Below are positions 46,511 through 48,302 of a stretch of 64,000 bases of DNA, piece by piece (the stretch's first letter is position 1; every line of letters begins with the position of its first letter). The stretch covers positions 919-64,918 of the forward strand of contig JBNMHO010000005.1 of the NCBI GenBank assembly GCA_050872785.1, read 5' to 3'. A program made the position numbers and the translations under genes. Under the pieces are notes generated by a model. It was not told the origin of the DNA and ran no database searches. It was given only the letters and a program-made list of their open reading frames with translations. Source of the stretch: Clostridia bacterium (GTDB lineage: Bacteria > Bacillota > Clostridia > Christensenellales > UBA1242).

Positions 46511-48182
46511 TCACTTCCAAATAGCAAGCAAAGTTTGGTCGCCAACAGTCGTATATTGCGTTGATGATGTTACAATATTCGCCCCATAACTTCTGAAATC
46601 TGTTGCCAAACTGTTTTCCTTCAACCGAAAGTCTTTTATGGTTAAATAACACTCACTAACTGAATTTACAAAAGCTGGGAATCGTATGGTCAAGTAATTC
46701 CCGTCAACCAAGTCTTCCTCACGGGGACAAAATGTAAGATAAAACATCAGGTCATCATCAATATAATCTGACTCACTTTTTAGAATAGCAGCAAATTGAT
46801 TATTTACAAGTCTGTTTGTATAAACACCTTGCTTACCCGCTCCAACAGAGATAAACATATAATTTAAACTTGCTGAACAATTAAGTTCTTGTCTGATAAA
46901 AGATAATGTATAACTCTTGCCCGCTTGCACTTGAACATTAGTTGAAATTTCATTGTATAAATTCCCACTTTGAATTGAGTATTTGCCGTCTGCAAGTTGC
47001 AGCATATTTTCATTCGTTGAATTTTGATTTGCAACTTCTTTATCCAAGGCATATTCCAGTTGTACATTGGAAATTGAAACATTTGCAGAGTAAGGATTTG
47101 TAAACCTAACTGGTCTGAAAGCAAAATATCTTGTTGGAGATTCACAACCATTTGTGACGGCATAGCCTTCGTGATAATAAAAAGTAATAACACACTTTCC
47201 CTTTATCCAAGGGAAATGCTGATAATAAATATCTCGGTTATAATTACCTTCAACCCCACAACCCACAGAACACATCATTTCTCCCAGATAAGTTGAGCCG
47301 TCATTGGTTGAGGAGTTGACAACATAATCAAAACTAAATGTGTATGTCAGTCCTTTGATAAGATAAATATCAGTTGTATATTGAATATAATATTCATTAT
47401 CTACCGTCACCGTTCTGTCGGCAAAGTCTAACAAATTCTTAGAATATGGCTCATATTCAGTCGCCGTGCTCCCATATTCCAGTTGAATTTTGTAAACATC
47501 TGCGTTGATGCTTTTATCCGCCGTGTATGAGCGTAGCAAACGCAAATAAAGATAAGGTCTAGAAGACAACTGCTCTGAGGTTGGAGTAAATGCACAAGTA
47601 AGCCTATATTCTCCCCCATCGGTATAAATCATTCCACCAGAAACAATATCTTTCGTAAAACTCCCATTGACCGAAGTTTCGCCACAACCAATACTCGTAT
47701 CAAAGTCGGCACCGTCCGAAATTGAATTTACTCTATAGTAAAAACTAAGGGTATATGTTACCCCCGCTTCCAATACAAAATCACAACCAACATTGTTGTT
47801 TTGTCCCTCATAATAACTTGTAACAGTCACATTTCTATCTGCAACATTTATTAAATTCTTTCCCCTATGCCAGCCAACAAAGGTCTTGCCACTGCGAGTT
47901 GGAGTTGGAAGTGAGCCGTAATTATCCCCTAACTTTACTTGCTTGGAGGATACCCCCCCCCCCCGTGCCAGAGAATTGTCCGCCATTGGCGTTGAATGTA
48001 ACATTGTAAGAGGGTCTATTGTATTTTACTGAAATATTTGATGTTGCTTGTTGGTGCGTTGCACCATATATAAGGACTCCCAAAATTGCCATAATAAGTG
48101 TATATAGAACGCAAATTGTTATCTTGTTTTGCTTATGATAAAATCTATTTAGCCATAACACAAAGCGTTCATATCTGGTCAT
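46511..48182 (-). pseudogene. surface-anchored repeat protein interrupted by a frameshift at a G12 tract (candidate phase-variable gene, OFF state)
   Basis: An 86-aa ORF (start 48182 behind GGGAGG, with a signal-anchor TM) ends just after the G tract. The 497-aa ORF continues in the -1 frame. Joined, they read YNVTFNANGGQFSGTGGG-VSSKQVKLGDNYGSLPTPTRSGKTFVGWH, a Listeria-Bacteroides (Flg_new) repeat signature. Confidence 0.8.
47953..47964 (-). repeat. homopolymeric tract, C12 on the plus strand (G12 on the coding strand)
   Basis: Counted directly in the sequence: tacccccccc|ccccgtg. Confidence 0.95.
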
Positions 48183-48269
48183 TTTGACTTCCTCCCATAA
48201 ATTATTTTCCTCAAAATTCTAAAATATATTTCCCGATTTGTCAAGTTTTTTAGGTCAAAAAGTTTGAGA

Positions 48270-48302
48270 TAGAAAAAATCTCAACCTTTATAGTCGAGAT
48301 TT
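48270..48302 (-). terminator. rho-independent terminator after yajC
   Basis: Stem ATCTCGAC/GTTGAGAT on the minus-strand RNA (48278-48285 / 48293-48300, one G-U pair) followed by a U6 run. An additional 9-bp palindrome TTTGCTAAA/TTTAGCAAA lies at 48324-48346. Confidence 0.6.

Follow-up and report, generated by a model that had tools for sequence, protein, structure and literature searches.

A gene in the 64-kb window, by which we mean the whole stretch of DNA analyzed (64,000 nucleotides), is split by a run of 12 G, and the locus raises the question of whether this run is a switch, an error of sequencing or assembly, or the lesion of a decaying gene. A reading made earlier from the letters alone (the sequence-only reading) had put the run forward as a candidate slipped-strand phase-variation switch of a surface protein. 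The genome assembly that holds the window is a metagenome-assembled consensus of 1.11 Mb in 37 contigs, with 37.7% GC.

The split gene and the protein encoded when its frames join

The split gene has yajC on one side and a DUF3792 gene on the other, with secD downstream and ruvB-queA-tgt upstream. Of the features listed below, the Shine-Dalgarno motif, N-terminal frame, and signal anchor were read from the sequence, the split repeat was identified by profile search, and the downstream frame was assigned from its open frame, dN/dS, and profile matches.

47953..47964, minus strand: G12 homopolymer, the proposed switch site (C12 on the plus strand, G12 on the coding strand)
48216..48244, minus strand: sigma-70-type promoter TTGACA-17-TAGAAT, 11/12 positions matching
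48191..48196, minus strand: Shine-Dalgarno GGGAGG, 8 nt 5' of the ATG at 48182
47922..48182, minus strand: N-terminal frame at G12, 86-aa product
48060..48122, minus strand: signal anchor/transmembrane helix, residues 21-41 ITICVLYTLIMAILGVLIYGA, with R/K/H residues before it
47825..48008, minus strand: Flg_new (PF09479, Listeria-Bacteroides) repeat split by the tract, YNVTFNANGG...Gn...VSSKQVKLGDNYGSLPTPTRSGKTFVGWH
46511..47950, minus strand: downstream frame, 479 codons and stop, out of frame at G12
48262..48290, minus strand: hairpin and T-run (TCTCGACtataaagGTTGAGAtttttt) directly 3' of yajC and just 5' of the -35 box of the switched gene

The tract begins 72 complete codons and 2 nt into the gene (ATG at 48182), in agreement with the sequence-only reading, which had placed it about 73 codons into a gene with a ribosome-binding site and a signal anchor; both were identified, as GGGAGG 8 nt from the ATG and as the helix of residues 21-41. 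At G12, the frame ends 10 codons past the tract, as had been claimed, with the stop read at 47924-47922 and an 86-aa product comprising the signal anchor, the start of the Flg_new repeat, a Gly run, and 9 out-of-frame residues. The second frame is open from 47950 to 46514 (479 codons) and joins the N-terminus if n mod 3 = 2, and the earlier expectation that 11 or 14 G would add about 480 codons is thereby borne out. Because the hairpin and T-run at 48262-48290 lie between the two genes, the switched gene is apparently transcriptionally insulated from yajC.

The run at 47953-47964 is the sole run of at least 9 G in the window. Four overlapping G9 matches were observed, compared with a mean of 0.13 in 100 dinucleotide-preserving shuffles, and 0/100 shuffles reached 4, so the run is indeed as unusual for this DNA as first described. 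G12 therefore has the form of an SSR contingency locus, a homopolymer of at least 8 nt in the 5' coding region beyond compositional expectation.

Joining the frames was also said to rebuild a Listeria-Bacteroides-type repeat, and the intact orthologue P0034 matched Flg_new across the tract position (39.5 bits, residues 59-122), against a Pfam gathering cut-off of 27 bits for this family (PF09479). The downstream piece from the window reached 25.2 bits on its own (profile positions 14-53), falling just under the cut-off because the tract splits the repeat.

Beyond the repeat, the downstream frame comprises about three CBM-like/jelly-roll modules, each with a terminal ...QLE.GSTAT.YEPY motif. 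CBM_4_9 matches scored 24.6 and 22.1 bits, under the cut-off of 25.9, and matches of the downstream part to DUF642 and GalBD_like were weak and also under cut-off. The AlphaFold2 model of the ON orthologue had a mean pLDDT of 49.5 and one confident module only, with a helix at residues 3-42 and a confident beta-sandwich at residues 110-250. Best Foldseek matches were to tandem CBM22, CBM16, SGBP-B (a Bacteroides surface glycan-binding protein), and BppA of the phage Tuc2009 baseplate (a lactococcal phage receptor-binding tripod). The CBM22 and CBM16 matches had E values of 1e-6 to 1e-3 but low TM-scores, and all of these fold matches are indicative only because the model is poor overall. Taken from weak sequence and fold matches, the head of the switched protein is probably a glycan-binding jelly-roll array.

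Tract length at the same locus in other assemblies

We defined the orthologous locus by the synteny yajC-gene-DUF3792-secD and compared it among independent assemblies (n = 8), with tract length and frame state as follows.

Window: G12, OFF
L016, Logan contig SRR30769985: G12, OFF
L014, ERZ27287456: G10, OFF
L015, ERZ27286925: G13, OFF
L011, Hadza MAG CAKVNA01: G13, upstream part cut by contig end
L017, ERZ28637120: G13, OFF
L012, ERZ28614417: G13, OFF
L013, Hadza ERZ4561784: G14, ON

This comparison, which the sequence-only reading had suggested as a check, yielded tracts of G10, G12, G13, and G14, any one of which may be off by one because short-read assemblies are prone to errors in homopolymers of 10-14 nt. 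The locus was OFF in 7/8 assemblies. L012 and L013 differ at a single position in 7,689 bp, and that difference is one G (G13, OFF vs. G14, ON); the G14 allele is annotated as a protein of 562 aa, which has a Flg_new match above the Pfam cut-off, and the G13 allele as 2 proteins of 82 and 424 aa. Further, L014 and L015 (G10 vs. G13) are otherwise identical in the gene and its neighbors; their other differences are a single substitution far from the gene and a cluster in secD. Tract length at this locus toggles between a full and a truncated product, and the tract is the variable site between otherwise identical sequences, as in contingency loci. With 4 lengths at a syntenic locus and an OFF/ON pair separated by one G, the proposal of a phase-variation switch gains support. 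An exact-pattern scan of metagenome contigs for the flanks of the window allele gave 0 matches, and the only orthologue from a scan of genome contigs was that of the Hadza MAG (G011).

Sequencing or assembly error would explain the split differently, with the real gene carrying a fixed in-frame G11 and the frameshift existing only in the assembly. Long homopolymers are known hot spots of such errors, but G12 was recovered in 2 independent assemblies of the same allele (the NCBI MAG and Logan SRR30769985). A single fixed length, which the sequence-only reading had itself named as the outcome that would sink its proposal, is not supported by lengths ranging from G10 to G14 and by the one-G pair.

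The downstream frame had a dN/dS of 0.10-0.25 at a dS of 0.18-0.56 across lineages and was free of stops over 479-484 codons in the 8 assemblies. The out-of-frame part is under purifying selection, again as in contingency loci. A plain pseudogene, that is, a decaying gene inactivated by the frameshift, would be expected to be out of frame, as 7/8 assemblies are; however, its downstream part carries neither a stop nor a further indel in assemblies spanning a dS of 0.56, and an intact ON allele lies one G away from an OFF allele. We rejected this second outcome named by the sequence-only reading on the dN/dS and the absence of stops in the 8 assemblies, and consider it close to untenable.

Poly-G runs and a paralogous family in the genome

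Genome-wide, the lengths of G/C runs are bimodal, with 25 runs of 6, one of 7, one of 8, and 23 runs of 9-12, and in all long runs the coding strand carries the G. Approximately 24 G-runs of this kind were identified in the 1.1-Mb genome, and since the window G12 is one of them, it is most likely one slippage switch among many. Nineteen of the long runs lie at the same codon of the Flg_new repeat in paralogous genes, which share a cassette in the order promoter, Shine-Dalgarno, anchor leader, first strand of Flg_new, and G run. The promoter box, cTTGACA-17-TAnnAT, lies ~75 nt 5' of the ATG in most paralogues. Two related signal-anchor leaders were found in the family, MTKYERFVLWLNRFYHKQNKITICVLY... 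or MRFWDKMRVGMLCVNY..., and the N-terminus of the window gene is 89-100% identical to the consensus MTKYERFVLWLNRFYHKQNKITICVLY... common to 13 paralogues. The first Flg_new strand reads YxRPxYTVTFDP..., and 3' of the G run the family has TATC(C/T)(T/C)C..., encoding VS(S/P)(K/S)Q...LGD.YG.LP.PTR.GY.F.GW. Homology within the family ends just 5' of the -35 box and fades past the Flg_new repeat, and the bodies beyond are diverse, including CBM-like, Laminin_G_3/ConA-like, DUF285/BspA leucine-rich repeat, and orphan types. In total, ~2% of genes in this genome encode putative poly-G-switched, lectin-headed surface proteins on one common cassette. The same LamG body was found behind both leader types (C3:37675, C17:7542), so that payloads are mosaic.

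Of the 19 paralogues, 5 are ON, 11 exceed an in-frame length by one G, and 3 fall one G short of it, and every paralogue whose downstream frame escapes a contig end has 218-618 open codons past the tract. The 14 out-of-frame paralogues likewise keep open downstream frames, as decaying pseudogenes would not. The same count bears on assembly error, since 14/19 is about the two thirds expected of free-running switches and not an error minority; even with a wrong length in the window, a tract conserved 19-fold at one codon would mark a contingency locus. We therefore regard error as the whole explanation of the split as very unlikely.

A further account accepts that the tract is hypermutable and holds that the out-of-frame states are not truly OFF, with slippage of RNA polymerase, or +1/-1 slippage of the ribosome, on the long G run restoring the frame in some transcripts or translations. 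In that case expression would be tuned by tract length, or many members would be held permanently one G over. The over-representation of alleles with one G too many (11/19 here and ~20/35 when pooled with G008 and G032) speaks for such recoding, as does strong purifying selection although most alleles are out of frame. Across these 3 genomes (this one being G000), ~20 genes were one G over, 11 ON, and 4 one G under. Together with the predominance of OFF in 7/8 assemblies of the window locus, the one-G excess could mean that OFF is not simply off. A simpler explanation of the excess, however, is that 11 is the modal tract length regardless of the length that a gene needs: genes needing 10 are mostly at 11, and genes needing 11 are spread over 9-12. 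At the window locus, the commonest length, G13, is one short of G14 or two beyond G11, and in-frame alleles exist. We consider recoding unlikely, and read the frame states of the family as those of ON/OFF switches.

Three tract-less paralogues (C2:116041, C30:2009 on the minus strand, and C31:1036) have NGGSC(D/S)TTSK at the tract position, and a relative in G006 (locus L004:1482) reads GGGGGGCGCGG there, so that its run is interrupted and in frame. Because such members exist, the tract is an added switch and not a requirement of the protein. These tract-less or interrupted "locked" members are useful as an ancestral or stabilized state and as natural controls.

Many contigs break in or beside the 5' cassette, including the small contigs C27-C37 and the ends at C4:581, C11:29647, C32, and C37. 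Fragmentation of the assembly is caused by this shared cassette, and the family probably has more than 19 tract-bearing members, because contigs break in or near it.

Of 28 genomes of the genus, 5 carried the cassette, as did one additional metagenome. A search of metagenome contigs with a broader cassette pattern identified 7 family members in metagenome ERZ808245 and no further orthologue of the window gene. Where switched genes have orthologues in sister species of the genus, these too retain an open frame and a tract, the latter at a different length (9 vs. 11, 11 vs. 12, and 11 vs. 13). Our literature search found no publication on this poly-G surface-protein family.

We also identified tracts in leader ORFs that precede the genes of a second anchored surface-protein family (loci L055, L057, and L058; G008 orthologues L054 and L056).

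C3:79881-79892: leader-ORF tract, G12
C4:62072-62080, minus strand: leader-ORF tract, G9
C24:828-838, minus strand: leader-ORF tract, G11

The leader ORF has 15 codons (MTYKNAHN.HK.CNI-Gn) and lies 150-280 nt 5' of the surface-protein gene, with a terminator-like hairpin and U6 between the two (folding energy -7.3 to -12.9 kcal/mol). Only at n mod 3 = 1 does the leader ORF reach or cross the hairpin: the C4 leader then stops 13 nt before it, the C24 leader and its G008 orthologue stop inside its 5' arm, and the C3 leader crosses it, running for 50 codons until its stop overlaps the surface-protein start codon as ATGA. All 3 leader tracts are now in other frames. Neither the leader regions nor the surroundings of the window gene matched an RNA family in Rfam. 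This arrangement, judged from its sequence, suggests a putative attenuator or translational coupling controlled by poly-G, and the CAATA-Gn-TATCYCTMAAGCAA module seems to have been acquired from the main family.

Two other tracts were observed. An in-frame G11 at C3:63722-63732 lies midway in a 495-aa protein, at a TTTT-GGG-VAF junction where the N-terminal domain conserved in the second surface family meets a DUF285/BspA LRR body; were the frame to shift there, the N-terminal domain would be secreted without the head. A glycosyltransferase gene of family 1/4 (Glycos_transf_1, 84.5 bits) has a G8 after 11 codons, at C18:5317-5324; this tract is now in frame and may switch a surface-glycan enzyme in the manner of Campylobacter.

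Known systems and the proposed switch

Phase variation by repeat slippage is a textbook mechanism in mucosal pathogens, including Neisseria, Haemophilus, Campylobacter, Helicobacter, and Mycoplasma, and for gut commensals the literature describes mainly invertible promoters. In Neisseria (Opa, PilC), the Opa proteins form a dispersed adhesin family in which each copy has its own promoter and 5' coding repeat, so that copies switch independently and give combinations; the Opa repeat consists of CTCTT pentamers in the signal peptide of a beta-barrel outer-membrane protein. The family described here resembles Opa as a multigene surface family with a promoter and a 5' coding repeat for each copy, an analogy of design only. 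Unlike Opa, the repeat is not a pentamer but a G homopolymer, located past the signal anchor and inside the Flg_new repeat, and the heads are lectin-like. The Vlp, Vsp, and Vsa systems of Mycoplasma switch lipoproteins transcriptionally through poly(A) or poly(T) in promoters. They share with the present family a small genome with a large share of surface proteins in families, a conserved 5' cassette with variable bodies, and a homopolymer switch, but here the poly(G) is intragenic and the proteins are signal-anchored.

Campylobacter jejuni and C. coli carry intragenic poly-G contingency genes, collectively the "phasome" (PMC8355987, PMC8437040). The present genome resembles that of Campylobacter in being small and low in GC and in having dozens of G/C tracts (~8-13 nt) that are bimodal in run length and lie within coding regions as translational ON/OFF elements, and one glycosyltransferase gene here also has a tract. 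In contrast to Campylobacter, where tracts are scattered over unrelated surface-modification genes, those described here fall mostly in one paralogous anchored family at one homologous codon, and the host is an uncultured Clostridia-type (Firmicutes) gut bacterium. MutS and MutL are absent in Campylobacter but present here, with MutS_I at 147.6 bits in an 889-aa open frame and MutL_C at 121.3 bits in a 680-aa open frame. With both genes intact, slippage may occur at lower rates than in Campylobacter, and in this respect the system is nearer to Neisseria or Haemophilus. The idea of a system that is Campylobacter-like through missing mismatch repair was rejected on the presence of both genes.

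Listeria monocytogenes inlA has a 5' poly(A) tract (A7) in a single gene that changes at low frequency (Orsi et al. 2010, PMC2831843). Like inlA, the window gene encodes a Firmicute surface protein of the wider internalin/Flg_new world that is truncated by a length change in a 5' homopolymer; unlike that of inlA, the tracts here are G9-G14, occur in 19 paralogues, and differ in length between contigs that otherwise match exactly.

We propose, with a probability of roughly 0.8, that G12 is a slipped-strand phase-variation switch of a lectin-like surface protein, caught in its OFF state and forming one unit of an Opa-like/Campylobacter-like set. The gene would be transcribed from its own strong promoter, and translation from 48182 would yield the signal anchor and first strand of the Flg_new repeat. 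At G11 or G14, translation would proceed through CBM-like modules of ~480 residues, displayed outside the cell (ON), whereas G10, G12, or G13 would lead to a stop within ~10 codons (OFF). Polymerase slippage during replication, with the gain or loss of a G, would flip the state in a heritable and reversible manner. Surface exposure and glycan binding are predicted, and host IgA, phage, or changing glycans may be the selective agent. As 19 paralogues combine the shared cassette with different binding heads, a clonal population should show a shifting combination of surface proteins. More tentatively, this small-genome gut lineage, probably of the Christensenellales, may control most of its exposed surface proteins by ~24 independent poly-G switches, including the phase-variable attenuator type.

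The mechanism is classical; what is new is the host lineage (uncultured small-genome Clostridia of the human gut, with relatives labeled Christensenellales by NCBI), the scale, with ~24 tracts across 1.1 Mb, and the use of one common cassette whose tract lies inside the Flg_new repeat. If confirmed, such switching would mean that annotation pipelines systematically miscall genes of this kind as fragments or pseudogenes, and tract-length spectra from metagenomic reads could provide a readout of selection in the gut. The surface that such bacteria show to IgA, phages, and glycans would be stochastic and combinatorial.
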